The notes: generated from the sequence alone by a model not told the origin. 64,000 bases of DNA from Candidatus Bathyarchaeota archaeon (GCA_963733055.1 CAVTBR010000001.1:384001-448000), one strand, 5' to 3'; counted from the first letter of the stretch, positions 7,166-62,860 are shown. Program-made: numbers and translations.

Positions 7166-7296
7166 ACCGAAACCCTGCCTTGCTGCGCCTCTCCTAAGCT
7201 AAAAGAAGTTTCGCGCTTACTGTATACGTGCCAGATGAACATCCGAAGATACGTACAATAGCCACCGAACCAAGACCCCGTCGCTGTGAAGTTGCC

Positions 7297-43155: not shown

Positions 43156-43218
43156 TCACCTGTACTCTCAGCGTTCGAATCCGAACCTAGATCATTCATT
43201 AAATCTGCGGAATACTCG

Positions 43219-43998: not shown

Positions 43999-44991
43999 TT
44001 AGGTCACAAACTGCCTTACTTCCTCGAAGAACAGAGCGCGTAGCTTGGTTGGGTCTGGTGCACTACATCGGAAATGCACAGGACGTCGAATCCTTGCATC
44101 ATCTTTATCCAAGCCTACAGTATCCGGGTACGCCTCACCGCAAACAATACACTTCGCTACTTCCGCTGGGCGAAGTTTGAATACTCGTTTAGCTAAATTC
44201 TGCAAGTTAGTGGAATCGTCCTGAGGGAATCGTTTTGCGGCTTTGCGAAATACTATTTCCGACAAAGCCGAACTCCACCACAGGGACGGGTTTGTGCTGC
44301 TAAATATACCGAGATATCTGGTTGAGATAAATTTTGAGGCGCGTCTGGAGAATGCCTCTTCAGTCATTCCGAGCTTTGTTGAGGCGTAGAGACAATCGTA
44401 TAAAAAGCCCATCGAAGCAAGAAATCTTGTGTTGACCCATCTCGCAAAAGCAATTGTATTCCCCGCTCTTGAAAGACCCTTCTTGAGGTTTTCGGGCAGA
44501 ACCATCTGGATCCTGTTTTGATCGTCTACAGGGGCCTTTAGAAGCGCGTAAATTACGCGCACTGAATTGCGACGTGCCGTTCTCACCTTTCTATAGTCGA
44601 GGGAATCGTAGTACAGGATCGTGTCACCTTCTCGCTTGACCTTTTTGATATCAATGACTTTGTCAGCCGCGCTTTCTGCCGCCTGAGCTAGTGTTGTATG
44701 AAGAGTTGTTGCTGGCCAAGCACTGAATAAGTAAATGGGCACCTCCGGATATTTCACACGCACTTGTCCTGCGACAGCAATCCCGGTCCTGTAATTTCTC
44801 AGATGTAATCGGTCATCGATTAAGAATAGGTCCGACTTCTTTTGAAGTACTTCTCTTTGATTCCGCTCGAATTTCTGAGCGGGCACGAAATTAATGTGCA
44901 GTTGTCGATTTCTACCTTCCAGGTTTTTTGCATCCTCTTCATCCTCCGGATTATCATCAATCCATGTTACTGTGACACTTCCAGACATCAT
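43999..44991 (-). CDS. Response-regulator receiver protein with long C-terminal domain and CxxC...HxxC
   Basis: WIDDNP, DLFLIDDRL, LFSA, IDIK; C-terminal CIVC...HFRC. Confidence 0.8.
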   Translation of the reverse strand: MMSGSVTVTWIDDNPEDEEDAKNLEGRNRQLHINFVPAQKFERNQREVLQKKSDLFLIDDRLHLRNYRTGIAVAGQVRVKYPEVPIYLFSAWPATTLHTTLAQAAESAADKVIDIKKVKREGDTILYYDSLDYRKVRTARRNSVRVIYALLKAPVDDQNRIQMVLPENLKKGLSRAGNTIAFARWVNTRFLASMGFLYDCLYASTKLGMTEEAFSRRASKFISTRYLGIFSSTNPSLWWSSALSEIVFRKAAKRFPQDDSTNLQNLAKRVFKLRPAEVAKCIVCGEAYPDTVGLDKDDARIRRPVHFRCSAPDPTKLRALFFEEVRQFVT

Positions 44992-47264: not shown

Positions 47265-47819
47265 GGAAGGCTTTCTCCCTCGCTCAAGGGCGGTCGGTGT
47301 GATAATAAGTGTTCTCCAGGTATTCGCGCCATCAAGACACGTTTGGGCACTCGGAAGTCGGTTATCTTCTTGGAAAGTACTCTAAGACGAAAGTCGCCCT
47401 CTAGCTTTTCGAATCGGTCAAGGCGCACGACTAACTAGACAGAATCTCTGCGATCTACCCTCGATTCTTACCAAGTCGTCAATCGGCAAATGCTTCGAGC
47501 TCCTCACGTTTTTTGGTCAGCTTCCATGCACCAATACGGTAGCGTGATCAATTTCGGGAAGTAAACAGCTCGTATTCCTCTTGTTTGCGAGTGAATTTCT
47601 GATCTGATTCCAACTACCAACCATTTGCATATCTGATGACAAGAAAGATACAACCATTGTTACCTTCAAAAGCATCTTAAGTCCCCGATCAAGAAAAGAA
47701 AGCGGAAAAAACACTCTGAGGTTTGAATTAGCCTCCTAAAGACTGCAACTCAACCTAACGGTTCAAATTACGAGTTTCACCGTGGGGTGCACACTCACGA
47801 CAATACCGTCAAGTAGTCA

Positions 47820-48414
47820 GTGATGATTGAGATCTTGTTACAGTACCTTCTTTTCGTGTCGGCTGGGGCATTCTTGGTCGCTGCTTACGTTTACGTAAGG
47901 TCGATGTTGAAGGGAAGTGTGAAGCCGAATCGAGCGAGCTGGCTGCTGTGGGCTATTGCGTCGATGATTGGTTTTGCTGCAGCAGTTTCCAATGGCGCGG
48001 GCTTGGCTGCTGTGCCAGTGTTTATGTCGGGTTTTTGTCCGCTCTTGATCTTCGCTGCTTCCTTTGTTGTAAAAGGGGGCTCATTGGAAGTTGGTCAAAC
48101 TAGATTATGCTTGCGGCGTGCTGTCAGCCTTGGCCTTAGTTTCTTGGGTGGTGACGAGCGATCCAGACGTTGCCATCTTGTTCGCAATTTTAAGCGACAC
48201 CCTGGCCTCAGTTCCGACGCTCGTAAAAGGGTGGCAGCATCCGGAATCAGAGTCCGCATGGACGTATTTGGTTGGAATTTTCGGCGGCATTACGAGTTTC
48301 CTCGCAATCACCGCATGGACCTTTTCGCAGTACGCCTTCCCAGCATACTTAGTGGTAATGAGTGGTCTTCTAGTTTTGAGTATCTACCGGAAAAGAATTC
48401 TTATCTATTTTTGA
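47820..48414 (+). CDS. Multi-pass membrane protein, split by +1 frameshift in G5 run (48075-48079)
   Basis: KPNRASWLLW; two overlapping hydrophobic ORFs join as VKGAHWKLVKLDY. Confidence 0.75.
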
Positions 48415-48583
48415 AAAAACGGACCCTGCATTTCTAGTGATCCCGATTACATATTTTTTATGTGTACTTGTAAGGGATATCCGCGCCAACGCTTCAAACA
48501 CCTACGTATGTGATCGCCACTAATGTGGTGGCAGCAAATTTCAGATACGCAGATTTTGCCGGCACTAGCTGGCGTGTAGATCA

Positions 48584-48619
48584 AAGGACTCGCACCTTAT
48601 TCGGTTCAAGTCCCTCCGG
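48584..48619 (+). repeat. Degenerate direct repeat copy A, with tRNA T-arm-like core
   Basis: AAGGACTCGCACCTTATTCGGTTCAAGTCCCTCCGG; 30/36 identical to 50554-50588 by hand alignment. Confidence 0.6.
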
Positions 48620-48895
48620 CTCTGACCCTAACAGAGTTCAAGTCCTTTGTTCTGAATCACTAGGTGTGCGACCGGTAAATTGGTGTCAGAATCCCGTTCC
48701 CCATCTCTGAAGTTCGAGTAACTCCGATACGAATCGTTACCTCTCTCAAGCGGATCTGGCCGGCCAGGCGACCGTACGCAGGACCTGGTGCTCTCACTAA
48801 CACTGTTTAGAATTATGCGGCGAAATCGTCGTAACCCACAAAACCGAACATAGGTAACAGTGTACCTATCGAGAACGGTTCCACTAGTCCTCTAG

Positions 48896-50053
48896 GTGCC
48901 TGTGCGCGTAATGGAACAATCTGCTTTACGGGACAAGATTCGCGTTGACGACGAAACCTTGGTGATTGAATCATTCAAGACAACGGCTTTCGACGTCGTA
49001 TCGTATTTCAGAGATAACAAAATTGAAGAATATGAGTCTCTCTTAGACGCCGTCCTCAGAGCTGGAACAATCGCGCTTCGAAGCGTAGCTGTTGCCGAAA
49101 AGATAGATTACATACAGAAGGCGTTCGGTGAACTAGATAACAAGTTCTCCACAGATCTTAAGAATAGTATTCAGATGCTCGACGATAGGTTCGAAGATTA
49201 CTTCGGGGAGAAAGGAAAGGTCTCCGAGATGATCAATACTCATTTTGGAGAAAATGGAAAGATCGTCAAGGAAATCTTCGATCCGAACAGAGATGGCACC
49301 CCTCTCTTCACTCTGTCACAGGGGTTCAAGAGAGACATGTTGGACATTCGCGAGAAACTTGGGATCAAAGAGGAGACTGATAAGATAAGGTCGAAAACTC
49401 CTCTCAAGGGACATGAGTTTGAGGCGACTTGTGAACTAAAGCTAAGTGAGATCACACGACTGAACGGAGATGAACTTGAGAACACGACTAACATCGTTGG
49501 AACCATACCACATAGCAAGAAAGGCGATTACGTAGTTACACTAGTTGGGAAAAATCCCAAAAAGTTTGTCTTCGAATTAAAGAATGTATCAAGTAAATTC
49601 TCGACAAGCGAAATTCACCAGAGCCTCGAACAGTCCATGAAAAACCGACAGGCTTCGTACGGAGTTTTTGTCGTTAAGGATGTTGAAGCTTTGCCTGAGA
49701 GCATAGGATGTTTCAATGAGTGCGCTGATAACCAGCTCGTCTGCGCCCTAGCGAAAGAAGAGTCATCGGATTTGACGAACTTGGATATCCTTTTCATAGC
49801 CTACCGTTGGGCAAAGCTGCGGGTTCTTCTTGAATCAGTGGCCGACCAAAGGATGGATGCCGGTAAAATCAAGGAAATCGTAAATGATCTTAAGGATCAG
49901 CTACGAAGATTCACAACCATCAAGACGAAATGCAGTAGCATACAAACCTCAGCGAAAGAGGTCAAAGACATCTTAGATGAACTCAAAAACCACATTGACG
50001 ACGATATCGGTCAGGTTCTGAAGGCGATCACTGAAGAAAAACCGCTTATCTGA
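48896..50053 (+). CDS. Coiled-coil protein with central PD-(D/E)xK nuclease-like domain (DUF2130/RmuC-like)
   Basis: KGHEFE...KKGDYVV...FELKN flanked by heptad-rich segments. Confidence 0.7.
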   Translation: MPVRVMEQSALRDKIRVDDETLVIESFKTTAFDVVSYFRDNKIEEYESLLDAVLRAGTIALRSVAVAEKIDYIQKAFGELDNKFSTDLKNSIQMLDDRFEDYFGEKGKVSEMINTHFGENGKIVKEIFDPNRDGTPLFTLSQGFKRDMLDIREKLGIKEETDKIRSKTPLKGHEFEATCELKLSEITRLNGDELENTTNIVGTIPHSKKGDYVVTLVGKNPKKFVFELKNVSSKFSTSEIHQSLEQSMKNRQASYGVFVVKDVEALPESIGCFNECADNQLVCALAKEESSDLTNLDILFIAYRWAKLRVLLESVADQRMDAGKIKEIVNDLKDQLRRFTTIKTKCSSIQTSAKEVKDILDELKNHIDDDIGQVLKAITEEKPLI

Positions 50054-50057
50054 GCGA

Positions 50058-50465
50058 ATGAGAAAGTGGACCTTGATCCGGGAACAGAAAGTGGCACAAC
50101 GCGCCATTACCTACGTCAAAAACCAGGCAGCTAGGAATCACATTAAGGTGCGTCCATCGAAGTTTGCGTCTGGCTACGACCTAGTATTACTTTACCCAAG
50201 CGGCAAGAGGCGCAGGATTGAGGTCAAAGGATCGCAGAAGGACAACATGATACCCGACATACGCGTTAGCGAGTTCGACGATGAAAAGAGACTCAAGGCC
50301 GACTTTCTATACTTCGTTGGGAACGTCTTCAAACGAAAGCCGATCCTCCACGTTATACCACGTAATGCAATTAGACCTCAAGATCTGAGTCCAAGGGGAA
50401 CCTATCATCTGAGGTTCGGTATGAACCGATTACAGAAGTATCGTAAGGATACATTCCCCGGATAG
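50058..50465 (+). CDS. Small PD-(D/E)xK nuclease (DUF3883/NO VEIN-C-like)
   Basis: GYDL...IEVKGS motif; 4 bp after the previous gene. Confidence 0.75.
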   Translation: MRKWTLIREQKVAQRAITYVKNQAARNHIKVRPSKFASGYDLVLLYPSGKRRRIEVKGSQKDNMIPDIRVSEFDDEKRLKADFLYFVGNVFKRKPILHVIPRNAIRPQDLSPRGTYHLRFGMNRLQKYRKDTFPG

Positions 50466-50596: not shown

Positions 50597-50671
50597 CATC
50601 TACGGTTCGCCATCACAGCCATAGCCCTTAACCTCCGCAGAACCAAGAGTACTTGCGCAAGGCGATAGCGG

Positions 50672-51544
50672 ATGGTTACTTTAGCTGTGATTGTACCATG
50701 TCGGAACGACTGCGACGCAGCGGAGAAGTTGGTTTCAAGTTTCAGTGAACAAACCATTCAACCAGACAAAGTTGTCGTAGGTCACGATAAGTGTCTTGGC
50801 CAGAGTGGATGCGCCCAGTTTGGAAACAAAGCTGCAACAATCAACTTCTACGCCAAGCAGCTCGACACCGACTACATTGTAGTTTTGGATGCCGACATGG
50901 AGTTAACGCCAACATTCTTTGAGGCATTCAAGATCGCCTTCCAACGAACAATGCCGACCGTAGGCAGCGGCGTTGTCTACGCACTATCAGAAAACACGGC
51001 GGCGAGGAAGAACCGACTTATTGGATTCGGTAGTGGGGCAATGCGCTGGTATTGGTTCGGGGGATGCATGTACATGCGAAGAAGCTTCCTCGTAGCCAAC
51101 CCTATGCCTACGGAAACTGTACTTGAGGACGTTGTTTACGGTAAACTACTCGAGAAGAGGGGAATCAACGCCGAATTCGTTCCCAACGCTGTCTGTTTCA
51201 TGTGGAGGAAGAACGAGACCTTAATCCGACAACTACGAAGACAAATTCGGTTCATGCTGGGATCACTCGAACAAACCCGTTTCCATCTGAGTCGACACAC
51301 GCCTGCCCTTTACGCAGCCCTTTCCACCGGCTATGTTCTTACTCTGCTGGGGGCTTTCAGACTTAACCTGGTTTTTGGATTCAGCCTATTTCTCGGCTAC
51401 ACTCTCCTAGTTGCAGCATGCTATTACTCCGGCTCTCAGTATGAAGAGAACGGTCTCGCCGTCACTCTCACATACAGCCTCTTGTGGCTTCCAATCCGCT
51501 GCTACACGTTTGCACTGTTTATCGCAAGGAAGAAGATATGGTAG
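50672..51544 (+). CDS. Glycosyltransferase family 2 with C-terminal TM helices
   Basis: VIVPCRN, NKAAT, VLDAD (DxD), LED, RRQIRF. Confidence 0.85.
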   Translation: MVTLAVIVPCRNDCDAAEKLVSSFSEQTIQPDKVVVGHDKCLGQSGCAQFGNKAATINFYAKQLDTDYIVVLDADMELTPTFFEAFKIAFQRTMPTVGSGVVYALSENTAARKNRLIGFGSGAMRWYWFGGCMYMRRSFLVANPMPTETVLEDVVYGKLLEKRGINAEFVPNAVCFMWRKNETLIRQLRRQIRFMLGSLEQTRFHLSRHTPALYAALSTGYVLTLLGAFRLNLVFGFSLFLGYTLLVAACYYSGSQYEENGLAVTLTYSLLWLPIRCYTFALFIARKKIW

Positions 51545-52014
51545 GCGTCGCCCCTACCAAGAGGAATCAACCTGCCAATATACGGCAGAACTACCCATCA
51601 CTCTTGTTTGAGTTTCCGAAATCCTTACGGCAGTCGTTGCAGTGATCGGATGGAGCATTCCACTTTAGGACGCATCCACGTAGATTACCCTCGAAGGGTA
51701 AATCGTGCTTCCTGGTTTCGCGAAAATGTTAGGGAACCTTGTAAAAGGAAGAATCGAGACCAGAATGCGAGAAGAACTTACGATGGTAAAATGAACACTC
51801 GAAGAGACCTAGCCGTAAAACTCACTGACCCAGTGCCGGTTACTAGTAAATTGGGGCTGAAAGCCCGAGGATGCGTGCTTCTTCTCTGTTTCACTATCTC
51901 GTGTATCTTTCCCTGGCCCTTGACTTGTAATGGAGCAGTAGGGCTTATTTCATCTCCTTTTCTAAAAGGCTCTTTAATCCGAGTGAACCTAATTCTCTTA
52001 CGGAAGCCTCGGAT

Positions 52015-52520: not shown

Positions 52521-53042
52521 TTAGTTAAATTGGAAGTCTGCCGTCCATGTTCCAGAGATTGGTGCTGGTTGGTTTAGCTGGATTTGGCTGAAGTCTGAGC
52601 TTACGAATGTGATTGTTCCGTCGAAGACGCCTGTTCCCTGCGTCGAAGTTAGAGTGCCGCTCCATTCGCCCTGGCCGATGAAGGCAGCCCGCCCGCACCA
52701 GAAGAGGAAGTAGCACGCGTAAACTGTGCCGGACACTTGCTGAATGGACCCCGATAGGCTGCTGCCGTTACGTGTTCCAACCCATAATCCGCTGGCAGTT
52801 ATTGGTATTTGGCCGATTGAGGTTTGAAGAATTCCATTGAGGATCATATTCATCGATACCGAGTTTGTATTGACCATTGCGTTCTCCAGGTTCCCGTTCA
52901 ATGAATATCCGGTTAGGTCTAACGCGAACGTACCCTGGCCTGCGCTCGCCATTACCGGAAGGAAAGAGTAACTTAACGAGGCAACAATTAACAACAATGC
53001 TACACCAAAAACTGCAAGACGGTTCAAGTTCGTCATACACAA
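52521..53042 (-). CDS. Secreted beta-rich hypothetical protein
   Basis: N-terminal hydrophobic signal; repeated G-x-W-x-G strands. Confidence 0.7.
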   Translation of the reverse strand: MCMTNLNRLAVFGVALLLIVASLSYSFLPVMASAGQGTFALDLTGYSLNGNLENAMVNTNSVSMNMILNGILQTSIGQIPITASGLWVGTRNGSSLSGSIQQVSGTVYACYFLFWCGRAAFIGQGEWSGTLTSTQGTGVFDGTITFVSSDFSQIQLNQPAPISGTWTADFQFN

Positions 53043-53336
53043 TCTTCCTGGTGCGTCGCTTTCGCAGCTTAAGAATGGGCTGTGACGCGAACACGTCTAT
53101 AGCAACGCGTAGCTGAAGTGTTGAAAGAAACCGGGGTTTAGCGAGTGATCTCGCATTCCAACCCCTGAATACACGTCACTGAGGATCAGGGGACAGTCAA
53201 TAGGACAATGCAGGTACCAATTGAACTGTCGATAAAATCAAGTACCTACAAAACATCTAAGCGCAGTTGGTTCGATGTAGCGCCAGTTTTGACGGATCCC
53301 TGCAGCTATTCGTCAGCGTCTAAGTCTTCTGGTTCT

Positions 53337-54971
53337 CTACTCGGGAGGTATCATTCTGTGCATCTTATCGACGGGTATGCCTCTTGACTTCTGTATGGTG
53401 TAGGATACGAAATAGATGACTAACCCAATCACGAATAGCGCCGCAACCACCGTGATGTACGACGGGTTGAGTGGCCCTACCAAAGCCGGCAGCAATGAAG
53501 CGTAGGCGATCAATAGTCCCATCGGTATGCAGATAGCCCCCACGATCACGATTATTGGTACTCCCGCTATCTTTCTAGTTGTGAGCGGCGGTGAAAGGTT
53601 GAAGACATCTCCGCGGACTCGTGGGAAGAGCACTCCCGCTAGGCCTACGATCGCCACGCTGATGAAGGAGCCCGTTATAACGTATGTGAAGAATGCGGCT
53701 ACCGATGTGTAGACTGTTAAGTAGACAAACAGCAAGTCTATGATAATTACGGTCGCAGTCGCCACGTATGGCACATGATACCTCTCGTTGACTTCGCTGA
53801 ATTTTCTTGGAATAACTGCGTCGAAACTCCAGGCGAACAAGCATCTAACCGACGTAAAGCTCGCCGCGAGCATGTACCCGAATAATGTTGCCAACAACCC
53901 TATACCCATGATCCATTCAACGGCTGCGTTCTTGGTGCCATATCCAGCCAAGAATTGCAGTATAGGTAATCCTGTGGGAAGGGTATACGCGGGGTTCGCG
54001 TTCAAGGCGAGATACGCAATCGACGCCAGAAAGTCATGGCCAATTGATGAATAGGTTACGAGCGCTACAAAGAACATCAGCACGATGTACACGATTGGAG
54101 CTCCCAACATCGCAATCACCTGCGAGCGTTGCGGGTTCTTCACTTCGCCACCAGTGTAGACTGATGCTGTGAACCCCCACACGGCTAGTAGAGTGTAGAC
54201 CACGCCGAGCATTGTATCCGAAGCATTGAAGGACAGGTTTGCCCCCGCGCTCTGCGCAGTAGATATGACCGTGTTGTATGGTGTAGTTGAAAGTGAGTTG
54301 AAGTTTGAAATGAACTGTGCGACGGGTGTGGTGCCCATTGCGAAAAGATATACTATTACGGAAAAAGTGGTTATAACGAAAAATAGGCCCTTGAGCTTGA
54401 AGGTGATTCCTGTCCCGAAGAACAATGCTATGGGCAGGATGACCGCGAAGATTGCCCCTATAATGAATTGATTGGAAGTAGTCGTCAGGCTAGTGGCCAA
54501 GGTGGCCAGGCCGGGATCTCCGTTTATGCCGCTCAGAGCGTTGAGCATCGGGCCTAACGCCATCGTACTGATCCACACGGCTTCGACGCCAATCACCGAG
54601 ATATTGATGATCGTAGCGACAAAATTGAGCATGAACCCTATCGATGGGTGAAGGATCCGGCCTACGAAGACGTAGTCGCCCCCGGACCGCGGAAATGCTG
54701 CAGAAAACTGCGCGTAAATGTAGGCTACTAGGAGGGAGGGAATCAAAGCGAGCAGCGCTGAAACGGGAAGATAGGCTCCAGGAAAGAGTCCTTGGCCTAT
54801 GACCAAGAAGATTAACATGAATGCTGGGCTAGTGAACATCAGATTCAGGACGAAGGCCCTGTACGCTGAGATTTCTCGAACGAGTCCGGTTGCTTCTCTT
54901 TCGAAAACTTTGCCTTTTGACAACGAACTCACCGATTGCTGAGTCCAGAGTCCAAATATAACATTTGGCAT
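53337..54971 (-). CDS. APC family amino acid/amine permease
   Basis: FEREATGLVRE, FPRSGGDYVF, GGEVKNP, about 12 TM helices. Confidence 0.92.
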   Translation of the reverse strand: MPNVIFGLWTQQSVSSLSKGKVFEREATGLVREISAYRAFVLNLMFTSPAFMLIFLVIGQGLFPGAYLPVSALLALIPSLLVAYIYAQFSAAFPRSGGDYVFVGRILHPSIGFMLNFVATIINISVIGVEAVWISTMALGPMLNALSGINGDPGLATLATSLTTTSNQFIIGAIFAVILPIALFFGTGITFKLKGLFFVITTFSVIVYLFAMGTTPVAQFISNFNSLSTTPYNTVISTAQSAGANLSFNASDTMLGVVYTLLAVWGFTASVYTGGEVKNPQRSQVIAMLGAPIVYIVLMFFVALVTYSSIGHDFLASIAYLALNANPAYTLPTGLPILQFLAGYGTKNAAVEWIMGIGLLATLFGYMLAASFTSVRCLFAWSFDAVIPRKFSEVNERYHVPYVATATVIIIDLLFVYLTVYTSVAAFFTYVITGSFISVAIVGLAGVLFPRVRGDVFNLSPPLTTRKIAGVPIIVIVGAICIPMGLLIAYASLLPALVGPLNPSYITVVAALFVIGLVIYFVSYTIQKSRGIPVDKMHRMIPPE

Positions 54972-55078
54972 GACTACTCCATCCTTTTCGTGGCCTTGGG
55001 GTGTTTTGAACGCTCTAATTTGCGGGTGAGGACAAGATTCATGAATGCTACCTCGTTCAGCCCCTCTTGGTTTGAATC

Positions 55079-56398
55079 ATGTCTGAAAGCGAGGCTGGAT
55101 GGGATCAAAATGTCAGATACTTGGATTTGGTGGTTAAGAAGAATCCCAACCTAGTTTTATTCGCCGCAGAACTTCATCAACGAAACCTCATCCCAGTAGA
55201 CACGTTCGTTCTGGACCTCGACGCACACGTCCACAACGCGAAAGCAATGATCGCGGAGGCAAGAAAGTTTGGAATCAAATTGTATTACATGAGTAAACAA
55301 ATCAACCGTAACCCAATCGTTACGCAGGCGGTAGTGAACACCGGGTTCAACGGTGTTGTCACGGTAGAGCCTCAGGAGATGCGCAGCCTGGTAAGGTACG
55401 GCGTTAAGATCGCACACGTGGGACACCTGGTTAACGTTCCAGAAGCTGAAATCGACTACGTCCTGAAAAATGCGCGACCCGAAGTGATTACGGTTTTTAA
55501 TGAAGAAAAGGCAAAGATGATTTCAGACCGCGCTGAGCGTCTCGGGTTGAAGCAGAATCTTCTGATCCGCCCCATGAGTAGGGACGATGTCCTCTACCCG
55601 TACATGGAGGGAGGAGTCCCCGAGAAGGACGCGTTAGATCTCATCAAGAAGATCAATTCGTTTCCGAACACGAAAGTGGAAGGCGTCACCAGCTTTCCCT
55701 GCATCCTCTACGATCTCAAAACAAACAGGCCGGTATTCATGCCAAACATGGACACTATCACTCGTACCGCCATAGAAGCACGGAATCAGGGCATACCGAT
55801 GCCGCAGGTTAACGCGCCACCCATGTGCATCACAAAGACCATTGAATTGTATGCCAAGAGAGGCGCGACTCATCTTGAACCTGGGCTGGGAATGACGGGC
55901 ATGTCACCGTGGCACCTCTATCAACCCGAACTACATCCAGAGATTCAAGCGGCAGTGTACGTGACGGAGGTTTCCCACTTCTATGATCAATACGCGTACG
56001 TTTACGCGGGAGGGCTCAATTACATAGAGATATTCGAAACTGCATACGACGGGAAAAGTTTCGTAGCTGATCCAGCTAAGTTGAAAATGAAAGCGATGGT
56101 GGGACGAACTCCTGAGCAACTGATGTACAATCCAGTTGAAGCCGAGCACTATAACGGCATCATTGACTACCATGCCAGGCTTTACAAGAAGCCATCAGTC
56201 AAAGTAGGAGACACGGTAGTTTACGGGTATCGAACTCAGATGTTCGTAAACAGGGCCCAAATAGCAGTGGTTTCCGGACTGAGAGATAACAACCCGCGAC
56301 TATTGGGATTGTTCGATCACGCGAACAACCTCATCGACCGACATGGGCATTTGCTCGGCGAGCAGAAGACCATAGACTTGATTCAAGAGAACTCATAG
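55079..56398 (+). CDS. Alanine-racemase-fold PLP enzyme, YhfX-like
   Basis: YYMSKQINRNP (PLP Lys), HVGHLV, TSFPC, EPG, YVTEVSH, RTQMFV. Confidence 0.85.
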   Translation: MSESEAGWDQNVRYLDLVVKKNPNLVLFAAELHQRNLIPVDTFVLDLDAHVHNAKAMIAEARKFGIKLYYMSKQINRNPIVTQAVVNTGFNGVVTVEPQEMRSLVRYGVKIAHVGHLVNVPEAEIDYVLKNARPEVITVFNEEKAKMISDRAERLGLKQNLLIRPMSRDDVLYPYMEGGVPEKDALDLIKKINSFPNTKVEGVTSFPCILYDLKTNRPVFMPNMDTITRTAIEARNQGIPMPQVNAPPMCITKTIELYAKRGATHLEPGLGMTGMSPWHLYQPELHPEIQAAVYVTEVSHFYDQYAYVYAGGLNYIEIFETAYDGKSFVADPAKLKMKAMVGRTPEQLMYNPVEAEHYNGIIDYHARLYKKPSVKVGDTVVYGYRTQMFVNRAQIAVVSGLRDNNPRLLGLFDHANNLIDRHGHLLGEQKTIDLIQENS

Positions 56399-56429
56399 AT
56401 TCGATAGATACAATGTAAGGATTCTTCAA

Positions 56430-56900
56430 ATGGCGTTGAACATCCGCAACTTTCGTGAATCAGACGCGAAAGAAACATCAAAGATGCTACTGGACGCGTT
56501 CAAATGGTTCCACAAACGGAGTAAACGGTCATGGTTATGGAAGTCCCTCCAGCCCTCCACCGTCATTGCTAACAGTAGAACTCAGGACATTCTCGTCGCT
56601 GAGAAGGCGAACCATATTGTCGGTTACATATCATCCACGACAACCCCCTTCAAGGTTGCCTACATCCCTATGGTAGCAGTTGCTTCGCATAAGCAGAATC
56701 TGGGAATTGGAACGCTTCTACTAAACAGAAAGCTGAACTACCTTCGCAAACAGAAGGTTCGCAAAGTCTGGCTGCTAGTCACGAATTCAAATGTTCGCGC
56801 GATAACATTTTACTTGAAACACAAGTTCGTGATTGAGGGATACTTACGTGATCACACAGGCCCGGGATCTGATGAAGTACTGCTGAGCAGGTTCCTGTAG
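56430..56900 (+). CDS. GNAT N-acetyltransferase
   Basis: VAV...QNLGIGTLL, N..AITFYLK.KF. Confidence 0.9.
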   Translation: MALNIRNFRESDAKETSKMLLDAFKWFHKRSKRSWLWKSLQPSTVIANSRTQDILVAEKANHIVGYISSTTTPFKVAYIPMVAVASHKQNLGIGTLLLNRKLNYLRKQKVRKVWLLVTNSNVRAITFYLKHKFVIEGYLRDHTGPGSDEVLLSRFL

Positions 56901-56909
56901 AATCATTAG

Positions 56910-58076
56910 GTGGGCCTATCGATGCGTGTAGTCGGATTCATGTCAGGCACGTCTCTAGACGGGTTAAGCATAGCATACGTGGAAATCGACGGAACGAAAC
57001 CACCGTTTTCCTCAAAATTCATCGCGGGCAGAACATTTCCACTACCTGAGAGTTTGCGAGCCCCCCTCCTCAAGTTAGCACAGTCCGGAAATGTCACGTC
57101 TCAAATTGTGGCAAATTGTCATCGCGAGTTCGGTGTGCTAGCAGCCAATTCACTGGAAATCTTCCTTCACGAAGAATCTTTACAGTCACCAGAGCTAATG
57201 GGCTTTCATGGGCAGACAATCTTCCATCAGCCAAGTGCAGATGGAACGACGACGTTACAAATTGGCGACCCATCTCCTCTCTGTTCCCGATTCAATGTTC
57301 CAGTCGTATCAGACTTCAGAAGTATGGACACAGCCGTAAATGGACAGGGCGCGCCGCTCGTTTCGGTCGTTGACTATCTCAAGTATCGCTCTGATAATGG
57401 GACGCGGGTAATTCTGAACCTAGGAGGGATCTCTAATGTTACAGTATTGCCCGTAGGCTGCGACTTAACCGGCGTCCTAGGTTTTGATGTCGGTCCCGCA
57501 AACATCCTGATCGACGCAGTAGTTGACCAACTCACCCATGGCAAGTTGAAGTATGATGCTGAAGGGGAAATGGCATCGCGAGGAAGCGTTTCGAAAGAAC
57601 TGCTTGACTCAATTACGCAGACCGACGACTATAGATTCTTACCGTATCCGAAGACAACCGGTCGAGAGAGGTATGGTCTCAGTTTTGTGGAGAAGATTCT
57701 GAGCAAAGCGAACGAGTTGAAATTAGACCCGAATGACGCTGTGGCGACGACGTCGCAGTACACGGTGTTCATGATTACGTATCACCTCACGAAGTTGAAA
57801 GACAGAGGACTGAAGCTGACCGAGTTAATTATTGGCGGCGGCGGTTCGAGAAACAAGTACCTTGTTCAAGAGTTAAAACAGAACAATCCGGAAATGACGA
57901 TTAAATTCCATACCGATTATGGTGTACCTTCAAGCTACTGGGAAAGCTACGCGTTCGCCGTGCTCTCTTACCTGGCACATCTGGGTTTTTCAGGAAATGT
58001 TCCATCCGTGACTGGAGCTTCGAGACAAGTCCTGCTGGGGCGCATTAATCGTCCCGCTAAACAGATCCTCACCTAG
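56910..58076 (+). CDS. anmK: Anhydro-N-acetylmuramic acid kinase
   Basis: MSGTSLDG, GFHGQT, LQIGD, DFR..D...GQGAPL, NLGGISN, FDVGPAN, PKTTGRE, GGGSRN. Confidence 0.94.
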   Translation: MGLSMRVVGFMSGTSLDGLSIAYVEIDGTKPPFSSKFIAGRTFPLPESLRAPLLKLAQSGNVTSQIVANCHREFGVLAANSLEIFLHEESLQSPELMGFHGQTIFHQPSADGTTTLQIGDPSPLCSRFNVPVVSDFRSMDTAVNGQGAPLVSVVDYLKYRSDNGTRVILNLGGISNVTVLPVGCDLTGVLGFDVGPANILIDAVVDQLTHGKLKYDAEGEMASRGSVSKELLDSITQTDDYRFLPYPKTTGRERYGLSFVEKILSKANELKLDPNDAVATTSQYTVFMITYHLTKLKDRGLKLTELIIGGGGSRNKYLVQELKQNNPEMTIKFHTDYGVPSSYWESYAFAVLSYLAHLGFSGNVPSVTGASRQVLLGRINRPAKQILT

Positions 58077-58109
58077 TCTACTCCACTCGCTGAACTAAGC
58101 GCAGCGCAT

Positions 58110-59225
58110 CTAGGAGATAGATGCGATGACTTCGTTTTGGAAATCCTGTAGGACATTAGTCCATGAGGTGCGCCGTTGCATCATTATGCCAACCGACTCA
58201 TCTGACCCCGGAATGCCTTCTCGAACTGGATGAACTCGGTTGGTTAGTAGAATTATGAAAGCGTCCCTCGCCTTGTCCAGCCAAACGGACGTCCCTGTAT
58301 AGCCGTTATGCCCGTAAGATCCAGTGGAGAGCCTTGATCCAACGGCGGGTGTCAACCGCGTTTTCACTCTCCATCCAAGGCCGTAATATGATCCCAGATC
58401 TCTCGTATGATTCCTTACCATCAACCGAATGGTTCCTTCCCGAAGAATTCTTTTTCCACCATAAGTCCCCCCGTTAAGCATCATCATACAGAATATCGCC
58501 AGATCACTTGCCGTTGAGAATAGACCCGCGTGCCCACTGACGCCGCCCATCGCTGCGGCGTTCTCATCATGCACTTCGCCCCTAATCATCCTAAACCTCC
58601 AGTTCGAGAACTCCGTCGCGGCCACGTTCTCGGCAGCAGCGAGCGGTGGCACAAATGATGTGTGTTTCATTCCTAACGGTTTGTAGATTTCGTCTGATGC
58701 AAAATGGTCTAAGGATTGGCTGCTGGCCCTTTGAACGATCTCCCCAAGAATAATGTAGGCTAGGTCACTGTAAGCGGCCCGTCTTCCCGGCGCCGATCGC
58801 AGAGGCACATCATTACAAATCCTCCAAAGAATCAACGCCCTGCTTGCCCGAGGAAGTGCGTACAGCGGTGCCCAGGCGGGTAGGCCTGATGTGTGGCAGA
58901 GCAGATGTCTGACTCGAACCTTCTTCTTGGGGCCCCTTGAGAAGGAGGGAAGCAGATCAACTACTCTAGTTTCCAAATCCAGCCGATTCTGTTCCACAAG
59001 AACCATAATGGAAGTTGCTGTGGCGATGACTTTGGTTACCGAGGCTAGATCAAAAAGAGTGTCGGGTTCGATTTTTTGTCGCTTTGGGAATATGCTGCTA
59101 TAGCCAACGGCCTTGTTCATGACTATTGATCCGTTAAGTCCAACGCAGGCAACTGCGCCGGCAAACGCATTTTGTTGTGAGCCATTTTCTATAATTCTAA
59201 AGGCCGATTCAAGTTTGTGTGACAT
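58110..59225 (-). CDS. Beta-lactamase-family serine hydrolase (AmiE-like muramoyl amidase candidate)
   Basis: FDLASVTK (SxxK), YSD, GEVHDENA..MGGVSGHAGLFST, GHNGYTG; no signal peptide. Confidence 0.85.
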   Translation of the reverse strand: MSHKLESAFRIIENGSQQNAFAGAVACVGLNGSIVMNKAVGYSSIFPKRQKIEPDTLFDLASVTKVIATATSIMVLVEQNRLDLETRVVDLLPSFSRGPKKKVRVRHLLCHTSGLPAWAPLYALPRASRALILWRICNDVPLRSAPGRRAAYSDLAYIILGEIVQRASSQSLDHFASDEIYKPLGMKHTSFVPPLAAAENVAATEFSNWRFRMIRGEVHDENAAAMGGVSGHAGLFSTASDLAIFCMMMLNGGTYGGKRILREGTIRLMVRNHTRDLGSYYGLGWRVKTRLTPAVGSRLSTGSYGHNGYTGTSVWLDKARDAFIILLTNRVHPVREGIPGSDESVGIMMQRRTSWTNVLQDFQNEVIASIS

Positions 59226-59245
59226 CTGCGCTTGTCCTCAAGCCA

Positions 59246-60187
59246 TTAGAATCTGCTAGCGCGTTTCCGTTTGCCCAGTTCGAGAGCTTTCTCAAGCGAC
59301 CCCCGCGCCGTTTTGATAAGGTCCCGTGCCGCTTGATAGTCTAAATCTTCTCTAGCCATGAGTATTGCGACGGCAACGTCCAATCGGGCCTCTTTGAGTT
59401 TTCTGAACGCCGCGTCAGATTTCAGGCCAGTTTCCGCCGCGACAATCCTTGTTGCTCTCTCTATCAGCTTCCTGCTTGTGGGTCTTAGTCCAACCATGAG
59501 GTTTCCGTGAACTCTGCCAAGTCTGAGCATCGTCACCGTGCTGACCATGTTGAGGACAAGCTTCTGAGCGGTTCCCGCTTTCATCCTCGTTGAACCAGAC
59601 AAAACCTCGCTGCCCGTCCTAGGACAGATTACGAAGTGAGCGTAACGGTAGACTGCTGAATGCGGATTGGATGTTAGCGCAACCGCCTCCGCTTTACGAG
59701 CCTTTGCAAACCTGAGCGCTGCTGTTACGAAGGGTGTGTTCCCGCTCGCTGAAATTCCGAAAACTACGTCCCTCGAACATAATCCAACTTTCTTGAGTTG
59801 ATCTACAGCTGACCGTGGGTTATCCTCCGCTCCTTCAACAGGCCTGAGAACTGCTCTGTTTCCGCCCGCAATTATCGCTCGCACAGTTTCTGGCCCGGCA
59901 CCGAATGTTGGGATGAGTTCTGCGGCGTCCATGACTCCCAGTCGTCCACTTGTCCCGGCACCCACGTAAATCAATCTGCCACCTTCCTCTAGATAGTTGA
60001 CAATCTGAAGGATAACCTTGGCAATTACGGGAATCTCTCTTCGCACAGCATCGGGAACTCGCTTATCTTCATCGTTAATGATTTTGAGAACTGAATTAAT
60101 GGACAGAGAACTCAGTCTGCGTGTTCTTGGGTTACTCTGTTCAGTCGATATGAGACCCATCCGGAACTTCGAACTTTTCATAATCAA
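59246..60187 (-). CDS. murQ: N-acetylmuramic acid 6-phosphate etherase
   Basis: TEQSNP, GAGTSGRLGVMDAAE, GAED, SASGNTPF, GSTRMKAGTAQKLVLNM. Confidence 0.95.
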   Translation of the reverse strand: MIMKSSKFRMGLISTEQSNPRTRRLSSLSINSVLKIINDEDKRVPDAVRREIPVIAKVILQIVNYLEEGGRLIYVGAGTSGRLGVMDAAELIPTFGAGPETVRAIIAGGNRAVLRPVEGAEDNPRSAVDQLKKVGLCSRDVVFGISASGNTPFVTAALRFAKARKAEAVALTSNPHSAVYRYAHFVICPRTGSEVLSGSTRMKAGTAQKLVLNMVSTVTMLRLGRVHGNLMVGLRPTSRKLIERATRIVAAETGLKSDAAFRKLKEARLDVAVAILMAREDLDYQAARDLIKTARGSLEKALELGKRKRASRF

Positions 60188-60274
60188 TCACCCTTTCCGC
60201 GGTCGGCGTATGCTTGATCTCAACTTAGTCTTTAAGCAGGTTTCTCAAGTAGCTTTGCGCGTCTGGTAGCGTAC

Positions 60275-61210
60275 GTGGCTTCGATGCTTGACGAGAATAT
60301 CCAGCGAATAATTAGAGAACTCGAGAAGGAAGGGGTTCCATCAAATTACTCTCTGTCTGTCAGCGAGGCGCGACGCCTCTCGAGGGATATGGGAAAGAGA
60401 TTCGCAGCCCCACCCCCAAATCTTGCCCTAGTCAGAAACGTAGTCGCCTCAACGCCAAGCGCGAAAATCCCAGTGAGGGTCTACGTGCCGACGAAGCAGG
60501 AAGGTCTCCCCGTGCTAGTCTATTTTCACGGTGGCGGATGGGTTGTAGGAGACCTGGACACTTCGGACTGGCTTTGTCGCTCTATCGCACTTGCAGCCAA
60601 CTGTGTAGTCTTCTCCGTCGATTACCGCCTGGCACCTGAAAATAAATTTCCAACTCCGGTTGAAGATTGTTATTGGGCTGTGAAATGGGTTACAGAGAAC
60701 GGTATTGAGCAATACGCAGATCTGAGACGGGTAGCTGTTGGCGGCGATAGCGCCGGAGGCAACTTAGCTGCGGCGGTTTGTTTGATGGCGCGGGACCGCG
60801 GTCAACCAACCATCTCTTTCCAATTACTCCTCTGCCCGGTCATGAATCATTCCTATGACACGGAGTCATATCGTAAGTACGCCGACGGGTATCTTCTCAC
60901 GTTGAAAGATATGGAATGGTACTGGAATCATTACCTAGCGGCCGAGAAGGATGGTCAGAACCCGCATGCGTCTCCGCTACTCGGCGACCTCCGATCCCTC
61001 CCGCCAGCACTAATAATGACAGCCGAGTTCGACCCGTTGCGCGATGAAGGAGAAGCTTACGCGGAGCGACTACGGCAAGCCGGCGTCCCCGTTAAGCTGG
61101 TCCGATACGAATCCATGATTCACACTTGGACCGACTTTCCTCAACTCGAACAGACAACGGCGGCAGTACGGGAAGCAGCAATGGAGCTTCGCAAGGCATT
61201 TGGAACTTGA
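60275..61210 (+). CDS. Alpha/beta hydrolase, HSL-family esterase
   Basis: HGGGW, DYRLAPE, GDSAGG, DPLRDE, His near C-terminus. Confidence 0.92.
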   Translation: MASMLDENIQRIIRELEKEGVPSNYSLSVSEARRLSRDMGKRFAAPPPNLALVRNVVASTPSAKIPVRVYVPTKQEGLPVLVYFHGGGWVVGDLDTSDWLCRSIALAANCVVFSVDYRLAPENKFPTPVEDCYWAVKWVTENGIEQYADLRRVAVGGDSAGGNLAAAVCLMARDRGQPTISFQLLLCPVMNHSYDTESYRKYADGYLLTLKDMEWYWNHYLAAEKDGQNPHASPLLGDLRSLPPALIMTAEFDPLRDEGEAYAERLRQAGVPVKLVRYESMIHTWTDFPQLEQTTAAVREAAMELRKAFGT

Positions 61211-61230
61211 GATCATCAGATTAGTCCAAT

Positions 61231-62391
61231 TTACGGATACGCTTGGACTCCTTGAACAAAAGTTGAGACGACGTTCAGATCTTTGTCTAAGAGGACGATA
61301 TCAGCCTCCTTACCCTTAACCAGACTGCCTGTACTAGCGCCTAGAGTCAATTGTTTTGCAGCGTTCAAAGATGCCATACGAATGACATCAGGAAGTTCGA
61401 GATGTCCCCAGGCGAGGAGGTTTCTCACCGCTCGATCCAAGGTCAATAAGCTGCCACAGAGCCTGCCATCCTCCGTGAAGGAACCCCCATCATGAACGAA
61501 ACCTTTAGTCCCACATAACTCGAACTCAGTCACTTGCGTCCCCGTGGGCATCACCGAATCTGAAACGAGAATTATCCCATCAGGCCCCTTCGCTCGCACG
61601 GCAAGAAGTGCAACGTACGGGTTAAGGTGAAGGCCATCGACGATAATTTCAGCCTTCACATCATCCGAGACAAGCGCCGCCCCCGCAGCCCCCGGCTCCC
61701 GGCCCTGAAGCCCGGACATCGCATTGAACGTGTGAGTGATGTGAGTTATTCCTGCGTCAATACCCTTCACTGCTTGTTGAAACGACGCGTTCGTGTGGCC
61801 CATTGCCGCAACAATTCCGAGACGTACGCTCTCCCTACATAACTCCAATCCGCCCTCTAGTTCTGGTGCTATTGTGATAATTTTCACGACAGGCTCGTAA
61901 CCTTCCATTATCGCTCTGAACGCGTCGAGGGAAGGATTCTGAAGGTATTCTTCGCGATGCACCCCACGCTTGGAGGGATTCAGAAAAGGTCCCTCGAGAT
62001 TCGCGCCCGCGATCTTAGCTCCCGCCCCAGGTTTTGTCATGGAATTTTTCACAGATTGTAGAAAATTTCTGATCTGCTCGGTTGGCATGCTAACGGATGT
62101 TGGTAGGAATGTTGTGATTCCAAACCGGACAAGCGCCTTCCCCATCTTAAGGAGGGACTGCTCATCGCCCCGAGTCGCGTCGTAGCCGCCTATGCCGTGA
62201 ATATGAACGTCAATGAAACCGGGCGATATGTAATTGCCACCGGCATCAATTTTGTTTACGCCAGCCGGAATCACTGAAGGAGAATCTGTGATTCTCTCAA
62301 TCTTCCCAGACTTGATGAGCATATTGCCCCGAGGGATCACTGCCGATTCAGTGATCAACGTACCGTTTACAATTGCGCAGTCAGCGGTCAA
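61231..62391 (-). CDS. nagA: N-acetylglucosamine-6-phosphate deacetylase
   Basis: PGFIDVHIHG, LEGPFL, TIAPE, GHTNA, THTFNAM, DGLH. Confidence 0.94.
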   Translation of the reverse strand: MTADCAIVNGTLITESAVIPRGNMLIKSGKIERITDSPSVIPAGVNKIDAGGNYISPGFIDVHIHGIGGYDATRGDEQSLLKMGKALVRFGITTFLPTSVSMPTEQIRNFLQSVKNSMTKPGAGAKIAGANLEGPFLNPSKRGVHREEYLQNPSLDAFRAIMEGYEPVVKIITIAPELEGGLELCRESVRLGIVAAMGHTNASFQQAVKGIDAGITHITHTFNAMSGLQGREPGAAGAALVSDDVKAEIIVDGLHLNPYVALLAVRAKGPDGIILVSDSVMPTGTQVTEFELCGTKGFVHDGGSFTEDGRLCGSLLTLDRAVRNLLAWGHLELPDVIRMASLNAAKQLTLGASTGSLVKGKEADIVLLDKDLNVVSTFVQGVQAYP

Positions 62392-62509
62392 TTAGCAGAC
62401 GCACCACAAATACACTCAGTGTCATGTAAACGAAGAGGGCTGTGCTCAAATTTACTCCGGTGGAGGAAAAGAAGCCGCTTCGCCCAGTATCAAGTACGGG
62501 ACTGGCAAG

Positions 62510-62535
62510 CTTAAAAGTAAGAATGTGATTCTTAC
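62510..62535 (+). promoter_or_regulatory. TATA-like box plus perfect palindromic operator of the TA operon
   Basis: CTTAAAA followed directly by GTAAGAAT-GTG-ATTCTTAC (8-bp perfect arms). Confidence 0.6.
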
Positions 62536-62599
62536 CAAGTACGCAGGAGAGCGGAGCAGGTCGTCGAGGATCAAATCGGTCAATGCTAAGGGTCGGAGC

Positions 62600-62860
62600 A
62601 TGGAGAATGTGGCAGATTTGGAAGTAGGATTTAGGAGGGTTACTTCTAAGGGGCAGGTCACTATTCCCGAAGTGATGAGAAAACGCTACAACATTACAAT
62701 GCAAACGAGGCTTGAGTTCGTGCCTAGTTCAGAGGGTATTCTTTTGAAGCCCGCGACAGAAGTGGGAAGTTTCAAGGAACTGGCAGGCTCGGCTTCTAGG
62801 AACTGGACTGTGGGTGAGATGTTGAGACGTTTGAGTGAACTGAGAAAGGAAAATGCCTAG
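62600..62860 (+). CDS. AbrB/MazE/SpoVT-family antitoxin
   Basis: VTSKGQVTIPEVMRKRY; ATG 62600. Confidence 0.88.
   Translation: MENVADLEVGFRRVTSKGQVTIPEVMRKRYNITMQTRLEFVPSSEGILLKPATEVGSFKELAGSASRNWTVGEMLRRLSELRKENA

Follow-up and report, generated by a model that had tools for sequence, protein, structure and literature searches.

We find that eight genes at positions 53337-62391 of a 64,000-nt stretch of a Candidatus Bathyarchaeota archaeon (GCA_963733055.1; G000:C1:384001-448000, referred to below as the window, to whose positions coordinates refer unless another contig is named) most plausibly form a working, vertically kept catabolic cluster, with which an archaeon that has no peptidoglycan of its own would use the 1,6-anhydro-N-acetylmuramic acid (anhMurNAc) of bacterial walls; we put the probability of this reading at about 0.75. 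Its core consists of AnmK, MurQ and NagA and is, as judged from alignments to profiles and solved structures, intact. To our knowledge, anhMurNAc is made only by lytic transglycosylases, and only from bacterial cell walls. A preliminary description of the window had proposed that the organism uses bacterial cell-wall debris, and this proposal is now supported by the intact AnmK-MurQ-NagA set, by the native archaeal character of the locus, by the fact that no machinery for peptidoglycan polymerisation was found, and by a hydrolase that recurs as a partner of these genes elsewhere. The enzymes and their chemistry are known. The pathway in archaea appears to be undescribed, and it is less singular and has a wider reach than was first thought.

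Short gaps separate the eight genes, all of which had been named in the preliminary description with the same coordinates. Families were assigned by profile search with Pfam and NCBIfam, and the features of the locus are as follows:

53337-54971, minus strand: APC-superfamily permease, 544 aa (AA_permease_2 PF13520, 71 bits; PF00324, 58.6 bits)
54972-55078, no strand: intergenic region of 107 bases that separates the YhfX-GNAT-AnmK operon from the divergent permease gene
55079-56398, plus strand: YhfX-like enzyme of fold type III, dependent on pyridoxal phosphate (PLP), 439 aa (YhfX-like_C PF21279, 72.8 bits; Ala_racemase_N PF01168, 43.8 bits)
56430-56900, plus strand: GNAT N-acetyltransferase, 156 aa (PF00583, 56.6 bits)
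56910-58076, plus strand: AnmK, 388 aa from GTG, or 384 aa from the ATG at 56922 (PF03702, 307.6 bits)
58110-59225, minus strand: beta-lactamase-family serine hydrolase, PBP4B/AmiE-like, 371 aa (PF00144, 232.8 bits)
59246-60187, minus strand: MurQ, N-acetylmuramic acid 6-phosphate (MurNAc-6-P) etherase, 313 aa (TIGR00274, 314.6 against a cut-off of 302; NF003915, 369.4 against 168)
60275-61210, plus strand: HSL-family carboxylesterase, 311 aa (NF058653 LipP1, 390.5 against 350; PF07859, 276 bits)
61231-62391, minus strand: NagA, N-acetylglucosamine-6-phosphate (GlcNAc-6-P) deacetylase, 386 aa (TIGR00221, 339 against 225.65)

These matches bear out the earlier account of a cluster of anmK, murQ and nagA with a hydrolase, a racemase-fold PLP enzyme, a GNAT, an esterase and an APC permease. 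Cut-offs of curated equivalog families are passed by MurQ, NagA and the esterase and are missed by AnmK and the hydrolase. The YhfX-like, GNAT and AnmK genes are co-stranded and separated by only 31 and 9 bases, and the hydrolase and MurQ genes, 20 bases apart, lie on the opposite strand to AnmK. The permease gene diverges from the YhfX-like gene over the 107-base region, which contains blocks, including a TTCATGAA palindrome, that are conserved in a congener, G013, the second species of the genus in which the cluster was found. That the clustering is not a matter of chance follows from the recurrence of the same partner genes beside AnmK in further genomes, both archaeal and bacterial. The esterase, which has neither a signal peptide nor an N-terminal hydrophobic segment, is present in the cluster as described and yet is probably accessory to it, not part of its core, because its frame in the congener is truncated (280 aa versus 311 aa in the window genome, G000). 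The C-terminal part of the congener's esterase (L005, G013:C1, 13061-13992) lies in another frame, which might reflect a pseudogene or an assembly error.

Alignments to solved structures show that the active-site positions of the three core enzymes are kept, in line with the intact signature motifs reported for anmK, murQ and nagA at the outset. MurQ aligns to the solved MurQ 4s12 with 239.7 bits and keeps the Glu residues in the 'D-A-x-E' and 'V-E-G-A-E-D' stretches; these two acidic positions, both kept relative to 4s12, we take to be the counterparts of the catalytic E83 and E114 in the E. coli enzyme. NagA aligns to 3egj with 211 bits, and its HxH, Glu, two His and Asp positions, presumably the metal-binding and catalytic residues, are likewise kept. 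The match of AnmK to PF03702 (cut-off 24) extends over residues 5-379, corresponding to profile positions 1-364 of 367, and alignments to 8bre and 3qbw show that the counterparts of S12, D14, T97, R129, N168, D182 and E326 in the P. aeruginosa enzyme are all present. Two accounts of that enzyme family assign D182 the role of catalytic base, S12, D14 and E326 a role in ATP and Mg binding, and T97, R129 and N168 contacts with anhMurNAc (PMC10570956; bioRxiv 10.64898/2026.03.13.711553). Six of these seven residues are invariant in an alignment of the 29-sequence clade to which the window AnmK belongs, with the T97 counterpart being kept in at least 90%. The predicted reaction of AnmK is the phosphorylation of anhMurNAc to MurNAc-6-P, and the context, with MurQ at a distance of only 1.2 kb, supports this assignment.

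The organism would scavenge wall sugar rather than recycle it, because none of the families searched for the polymerisation or the cleavage of peptidoglycan was found in its genome (2.88 Mb in three contigs, 96% complete). Searches for polymerisation machinery returned no PBP transpeptidase (PF00905) and no FtsW/RodA (PF01098), the Mur ligases and MurG not being searched for; the same two profiles were positive in 10/10 bacterial and 0/4 archaeal control genomes. The preliminary claim that the pathway acts on a substrate that the organism cannot make therefore stands for the polymerisation machinery searched. SLT, GH25, GH3 (NagZ), NamZ and Amidase_2 (PF01510) were not found in the genome either, in a search that did not extend to MltA, MltG, GH73 and RlpA. 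As a result, the secreted lysozyme or lytic transglycosylase that had been suggested as something to look for has no representative among the families searched for it (SLT, GH25). Since no SLT was found, the substrate would have to come from fragments freed by living or dead bacteria, and, the genome being without NagZ and NamZ, disaccharides would be a dead end. The organism probably depends on anhydro-muropeptides made by others.

In the pathway that we propose, a fragment at the monosaccharide level (anhMurNAc with or without a stem peptide) would be imported, perhaps by the APC permease, and the cytoplasmic beta-lactamase-family hydrolase would strip or trim the peptide, as its recurrent linkage to AnmK and MurQ suggests. 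Strong homology predicts that AnmK would then open the ring and phosphorylate C6 to give MurNAc-6-P, and equivalog-level matches predict that MurQ would release D-lactate to yield GlcNAc-6-P and that NagA would release acetate to yield glucosamine 6-phosphate (GlcN-6-P). For the remaining steps the genome offers candidates outside the cluster: one of four GlmD/NagB-II-like proteins might convert GlcN-6-P to fructose-6-phosphate and ammonia, and one of three GlcD-family flavoproteins might oxidise D-lactate. The pathway plausibly runs on to fructose-6-phosphate and pyruvate, with candidate enzymes for its end. Three of the four GlmD/NagB-II-like proteins, each of which has the double-SIS form of a GlmS isomerase half, are encoded together near a BadF-type kinase, outside the window at locus L118 (G000:C3:474000-492000). 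These three are paralogous (353-366 aa) and score below the GlmD, NagB-II and FrlB cut-offs; the kinase, which is BadF/NagK-like, is accompanied there by an F420-dependent LLM oxidoreductase and by a TIM barrel of sugar-epimerase type, so that the locus looks like a catabolic island for amino sugars or Amadori compounds.

The hydrolase matches the PF00144 fold and carries an S-V-T-K motif, the SxxK signature of serine hydrolases. It lacks both a signal peptide and an N-terminal hydrophobic segment, and its match to the PBP4B profile begins at position 39. A homologue with 36% identity (E 2e-69) lies within the operon of a Sporosarcina locus, L019, in which the gene order is SpoIID - BadF kinase - GNAT - beta-lactamase-family protein - GH3 - AnmK - ABC transporter - NamZ - MurQ - RpiR - NagA, and another, with 47% identity, lies between NagZ (GH3) and AnmK in the archaeal genome G415. 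Homologues lie within 10 kb of AnmK in 8 of the 80 bacterial loci listed, and the same holds for four of the ten archaeal loci that were extended. The protein seems to work like PBP4B or AmiE, without being filed as PBP4B proper, and it is a candidate MurNAc-peptide amidase, or a candidate peptidase acting on the stem peptide. The existence of Bacillales-like gene sets in archaea is the strongest support both for the wall-sugar reading of the cluster and for a muropeptide role of this hydrolase. The permease, with about 12 hydrophobic segments as counted by a script, is the sole membrane protein of the cluster and might be the importer of the substrate. It shares 95% amino acid identity with its counterpart in G013, with a ratio of nonsynonymous to synonymous substitution rates (dN/dS) of 0.064, and its nearest ESM Atlas clusters are mostly archaeal, the commonest label being Candidatus Bathyarchaeota, which is a lead only.

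Two further genes distinguish the operon of AnmK in the window. The YhfX-like protein aligns over nearly its full length to E. coli YhfX (PDB 4kbx, an entry titled 'uncharacterized') with 208.8 bits; both Pfam domains are present, and the Lys aligned to the 'MTKQ' position of YhfX is kept. Its Atlas name is 'putative amino acid racemase', and it is a candidate for such an activity, the leading reading being that it may racemise D-amino acids of the stem peptide. E. coli yhfX presumably lies in the yhfS-yhfZ operon, without wall-sugar genes, whereas the gene described here heads an AnmK operon, as it also does in relatives. Homologues of the YhfX-like protein with 60-96% identity occur on contigs of the same size as contigs that carry AnmK of the window clade (5768, 7260, 24329, 5671 and 19207), and MurQ matches occur on contigs that agree in size in the same way (18869, 2191, 7260 and 24329). 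From these equal sizes, we infer that the linkage of YhfX, AnmK and MurQ is conserved down to about 45% AnmK identity. The arrangement YhfX-GNAT-AnmK is seen directly on a metagenome contig of 2361 bases (L099), one of the two metagenome loci retrieved, and the GNAT gene is kept between the other two both there and in G013. No homologue of the YhfX-like protein, the permease or the esterase was found by tblastn in any of the 80 bacterial AnmK loci listed, and a survey of 59 genomes of the family gave the YhfX type in G000 and G013 only. The YhfX-like enzyme and the GNAT are thus conserved partners of the window type of AnmK, with dN/dS values between G000 and G013 of 0.050 and 0.143, respectively. 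The GNAT, which is not specifically related to the one that the Sporosarcina operon for wall sugars encodes, is a candidate for re-acetylating an N-deacetylated amino sugar or for acetylating an amino acid; a glucosaminide N-acetyltransferase in clostridial recycling provides a precedent for such a role.

By its sequence, the window AnmK is a distinct variant that forms a clade of its own and is linked to the YhfX-like gene. It shares 33-41% identity with the other archaeal AnmKs found by genome search, and a large protein collection contains 30 proteins that reach 45% identity or more to it, the next being at most 41% identical. A tree of 92 rows places it in a 29-row clade with 100% support in the Shimodaira-Hasegawa-like approximate likelihood ratio test (SH-aLRT) and a stem of 0.56, separate from a clade with 96% support that contains the other archaeal AnmKs; one cluster in the window clade is named, as Thermoprotei archaeon. 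In an approximately unbiased (AU) test on a reduced set of 44 rows under LG+G4, with a grouping chosen after inspection of the tree, a single clade of all archaeal AnmKs was not rejected (p-AU 0.266), and therefore we do not claim two independent acquisitions of AnmK.

AnmK is present in 3/41 close relatives, G000 included, and within the genus the whole cluster is found in G000 and G013 only, of 23 species. Across the phylum, AnmK occurs in 35/401 genomes and 19/162 genera; across the class it occurs in 40/401 genomes, being concentrated in one family (33/71) and not seen in the largest (0/104). Hand counts gave a strong MurQ match in 37/40 AnmK-positive versus 7/361 AnmK-negative genomes of the class, and NamZ in 31/35 AnmK-positive versus 10/366 AnmK-negative genomes of the phylum, although kin genomes are not independent, so that these counts are descriptive and overstate the support. 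The co-occurrence of such genes across archaeal metagenome-assembled genomes (MAGs), which the preliminary description had proposed to survey, is thus observed for AnmK, MurQ and NamZ, and the trait is not peculiar to this organism. Among 15 short loci from the AnmK-rich family, AnmK is adjoined by NagA in 14 and by MurQ in one, and in 9 of 10 extended archaeal loci (20 kb) MurQ, NagA or the hydrolase lies within 10 kb of AnmK. Two annotated loci hold fuller wall-sugar clusters than the window does. Locus L129 of G555 (G555:C48, 4155-12631) has the order BadF kinase - MurQ - unknown - NamZ - NagA - AnmK - M20 peptidase, and locus L121 of G415, a member of another class (G415:C1, 4588-10671), has MurQ - NamZ - GH3 - hydrolase - AnmK; no signal peptide was found in any of the cluster proteins of these two genomes. 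The G555 gene between MurQ and NamZ encodes a conserved 332-aa protein without a Pfam match. Similar clusters are found in at least six other archaeal families, and a single-contig, 99%-complete genome (G098) carries AnmK, NamZ and the hydrolase. Named archaeal MAG labels among the AnmK, MurQ and YhfX matches are Thermoprotei archaeon, Thermoproteota archaeon, Candidatus Brockarchaeota archaeon, archaeon GB-1867-005 and Candidatus Bathyarchaeia archaeon. Together with the Atlas neighbours of the permease, they suggest, as a lead only, that the host belongs to Thermoproteota and probably to Bathyarchaeia. The trait is no singular oddity, as roughly 9-10% of the species sampled from the phylum have it.

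Several observations weigh against the reading of the cluster as a route for wall-derived anhMurNAc, and some of them would be accommodated if its substrate did not come from peptidoglycan at all, the kinase taking levoglucosan or some other 1,6-anhydro sugar, such as might come from burnt vegetation in the soil, and the etherase taking a different lactyl-ether sugar. The window AnmK lies below every NCBIfam equivalog cut-off (the best of 14 models, NF007148, gives 350.9 against 387), its clade has a long stem and is linked to a YhfX-like PLP enzyme without a known role in wall recycling, and the only sequencing run found with the stretch is a soil metagenome, which again is a lead only. Alignment to levoglucosan kinase (4zxz) gives 155 bits, versus 196 and 178 bits for solved AnmK structures, and levoglucosan kinase likewise has T, R, N, D and E at the contact positions, so that sequence cannot settle the specificity for anhMurNAc or levoglucosan. 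The C-terminal V-T-G-A-S stretch of the window protein, however, matches AnmK and not levoglucosan kinase, MurQ exceeds its equivalog cut-off and is a close neighbour of AnmK, the AnmK-MurQ linkage extends across the clade in the four contigs matched by equal size, and the PBP4B/AmiE-like hydrolase and NagA are partners of the bacterial wall pathway, as in the Sporosarcina locus. On balance, we regard a substrate of other origin as unlikely. The observations that remain to be set against the use of wall sugar concern the steps around the core. The best NCBIfam match of the hydrolase, to PBP4B, scores 207.2 against a cut-off of 385, and its nearest solved structure gives only 81.5 bits, there being no close solved relative; the permease resembles amino-acid permeases weakly; and the search for wall-cleaving enzymes covered six families, namely SLT, GH25, GH3, NamZ and Amidase_2, plus the in-cluster hydrolase via PF00144. 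Moreover, a canonical NagB (PF01182) is absent from the genome, and the four GlmS-isomerase-half proteins (353-382 residues) all score below the GlmD and NagB-II cut-offs; for nagB, which had been named as a gene to seek, the outcome is therefore divided between the absence of the canonical form and the presence of the four proteins resembling GlmD and NagB-II.

The other alternatives concern the history of the segment instead of its substrate. The cluster might be a leftover of an old bacterial transfer, kept by chance or without ecological weight, in which case feeding by archaea on bacterial necromass would be over-read; its restriction to two species of the genus, the failure to find wall-cleaving enzymes of the searched families in the genome and the broken esterase frame in G013 are consistent with this idea. 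Gene order is nevertheless intact in both species: the eight genes of G013 have the identical order and 84-95% protein identity, and the DNA match to window positions 53334-62481 is unbroken, at 86%. All eight genes show dN/dS values of 0.05-0.21 at synonymous divergence (dS) of 0.40-0.57 between G000 and G013, that is, purifying selection, and such low ratios imply that the genes are maintained by selection. Similar clusters in the other archaeal families also speak against a mere leftover, which we hold to be improbable. A chimeric or contaminant bacterial piece misassembled into an archaeal contig is very unlikely. The core enzymes are typically bacterial, contamination of the genome is estimated at 5.28%, and public contigs are too short to bridge the junctions, given that the one run found with the stretch contains 0.20 of its words and yields contigs of at most 831 bases with no junction bridged, and that no RNA run was found with it. 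Against this, the cluster lies within contig C1 of 1,572,808 bases, which bears archaeal small-subunit (1452.5 bits) and large-subunit rRNA genes, and the GC content is even throughout the window. The Kullback-Leibler distances in codon usage of the seven cluster genes tested fall at percentiles 11-78 of open reading frames (ORFs) of similar length, and GC content at third codon positions is 0.50-0.60 in the cluster versus 0.56 +/- 0.05 in 1483 long ORFs. In G013 the block lies on a contig of 409,701 bases, the first 20 kb of which are collinear with G000:C1 404.7-470.1 kb, G000 having two additional segments, one of about 30 kb and one of 17.6 kb, in this backbone. The mostly archaeal Atlas neighbours of the permease, and the many other archaeal genomes with the same partner genes, point in the same direction. 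The archaeal taxonomy of the contig, a matter raised by the preliminary description, is confirmed by its rRNA genes, by typical codon usage, by the collinear congener and by purifying selection. When other congeners were compared for an empty site, orthologues of the two backbone genes lay on different contigs or far apart.

The Bacillales-type MurNAc operon, as exemplified by the Sporosarcina locus, resembles the window cluster in bringing together AnmK, MurQ, NagA, a beta-lactamase-family hydrolase and a GNAT-fold protein in one locus, and it has NamZ, GH3 NagZ and a BadF-type kinase in common with the other archaeal clusters (G415 and G555). In contrast, the window cluster is without NagZ, NamZ, MurR/RpiR and an importer of the phosphotransferase system (PTS) or ABC type, and has instead the APC permease and the YhfX-like enzyme. 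The Bacillales host recycles its own wall, whereas the host of the window cluster, lacking the peptidoglycan machinery searched for, would scavenge. The B. subtilis operon has the order murQ-murR-murP-amiE-nagZ-namZ, with NagZ and AmiE being secreted, whereas none of the archaeal enzymes examined has a signal peptide. E. coli has a murQ-murP-yfeW operon that includes PBP4B, and the recycling set consists of AmpG, AmpD, NagZ, AnmK and MurQ or MupP. Recycling in E. coli and Pseudomonas is thus alike in the chemistry from AnmK through MurQ to NagA and in the PBP4B-like gene beside murQ, but differs in that AmpG, an AmpD-type amidase (PF01510) and GH3 were not found here, and in that E. coli PBP4B has a signal peptide, which the window hydrolase lacks.

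Genes of the AnmK/MurQ type also occur in other hosts that cannot make MurNAc and so do not build a wall from it de novo. Tannerella forsythia is said to scavenge wall sugar, without MurNAc synthesis of its own, and to build its own wall from it, whereas in the archaeon the end point would be catabolic. The nearest parallels are anaerobic ciliates, which are reported to carry transferred pbp4b, NamZ, anmK, murQ and nagB (PMC13198582), and ticks, which are reported to carry a transferred, active AnmK (bioRxiv 10.64898/2026.03.13.711553). The ciliate set, as given there, resembles the window cluster further in including a pbp4b-like hydrolase; the differences from all three systems are that the host here is an archaeon, that the genes form a compact, operon-like cluster, and that purifying selection is shown. 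A full-text literature search found no description of an AnmK/MurQ pathway in archaea; supplementary tables of MAG studies, which lie outside that search, may list the genes, and automatic annotation at NCBI already labels MurQ and AnmK in some archaeal MAGs. The nearest archaeal mention is a statement that certain Bathyarchaeia MAGs encode carbohydrate esterases 'related to peptidoglycan degradation' (PMC13288992), and another article mentions peptidoglycan degradation genes for DPANN (PMC9939782).

A broader proposition joins two claims, and we advance it only tentatively, as a possibility that is itself rather doubtful. Catabolism of muramic sugars would be widespread, and hitherto undescribed, in Thermoproteota-type archaea (about one-tenth of sampled species, in many families), where it would be a real sink for the carbon and nitrogen of bacterial walls in soils and sediments, and, in addition, the window variant would use the APC permease, the YhfX-like enzyme and the GNAT in place of bacterial importers and glycosidases, so as to import amino-acid-like fragments (anhMurNAc-peptides or N-deacetylated anhydromuramic acid), with the PLP enzyme and the acetyltransferase catalysing steps without a parallel in the recycling pathways known so far. 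Bacterial necromass is traced by means of muramic acid, and in soils and sediments peptidoglycan makes up a large pool, rich in nitrogen, whose consumers are usually assumed to be bacterial. Should many archaea possess a MurNAc pathway within the cell, part of this turnover would be archaeal, and the residence time of the marker would depend on archaea. The gene set is now defined for use in stable-isotope probing and metatranscriptomics, with relatives that have near-complete, single-contig genomes containing AnmK, NamZ and the hydrolase, and it provides a first functional context for YhfX-like PLP enzymes and for PBP4B/AmiE-like hydrolases.

Other features of the window lie on either side of the cluster. 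Just upstream of the permease gene, the minus strand encodes a 173-aa protein (52521-53042) that has a hydrophobic segment at its N terminus and matches no family, within a block shared with G013 at 81% DNA identity. At the opposite end, orf107 (62381-62704) was considered as a member of the cluster and rejected, having no family match, not being conserved in G013 and overlapping an AbrB/MazE-like frame on the opposite strand; the latter (62525-62860, plus strand) scores 23.6 bits, just below the cut-off of 24.7, and is not conserved in G013 either. A stretch resembling a defence island (40954-50465), which encodes an Eco57I/TaqI_C-type methylase, a 758-aa double HATPase_c protein, a NOV_C-domain protein and several ORFs without a family match, falls in the approximately 30 kb missing from G013. 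Two elements look recently mobile, these being a GT2 glycosyltransferase gene (50609-51563) that matches a distant site in G013 with 97% identity, versus 86% for the cluster, and an ORF at 47820-48437 (47736-48488) of which G013 contains two copies, at 94% and 91%. About 41 bases at 48671-48711 have matches of 85-93% on many congener contigs, including at least 14 places in G011, whereas a scan of G000 that tolerated up to 6 substitutions gave a single occurrence. The catalytic chain of aspartate carbamoyltransferase and the metal-binding domain of its regulatory chain (PyrB plus PyrI_C) are joined in one frame at 36462-37562 on the plus strand. At 7228-9662, a gene resembling 2,4-diaminopentanoate dehydrogenase (286.7 against a cut-off of 400) adjoins one resembling class-III aminotransferases or aminomutases, a pair that hints at fermentation of ornithine or D-amino acids. 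Finally, an enolase-superfamily gene (20803-21906, plus strand) was considered as an L-Ala-D/L-Glu epimerase and rejected, as it matches cis-3-hydroxy-L-proline dehydratase (609.9 against a cut-off of 500), and it points to hydroxyproline catabolism in the archaeon.

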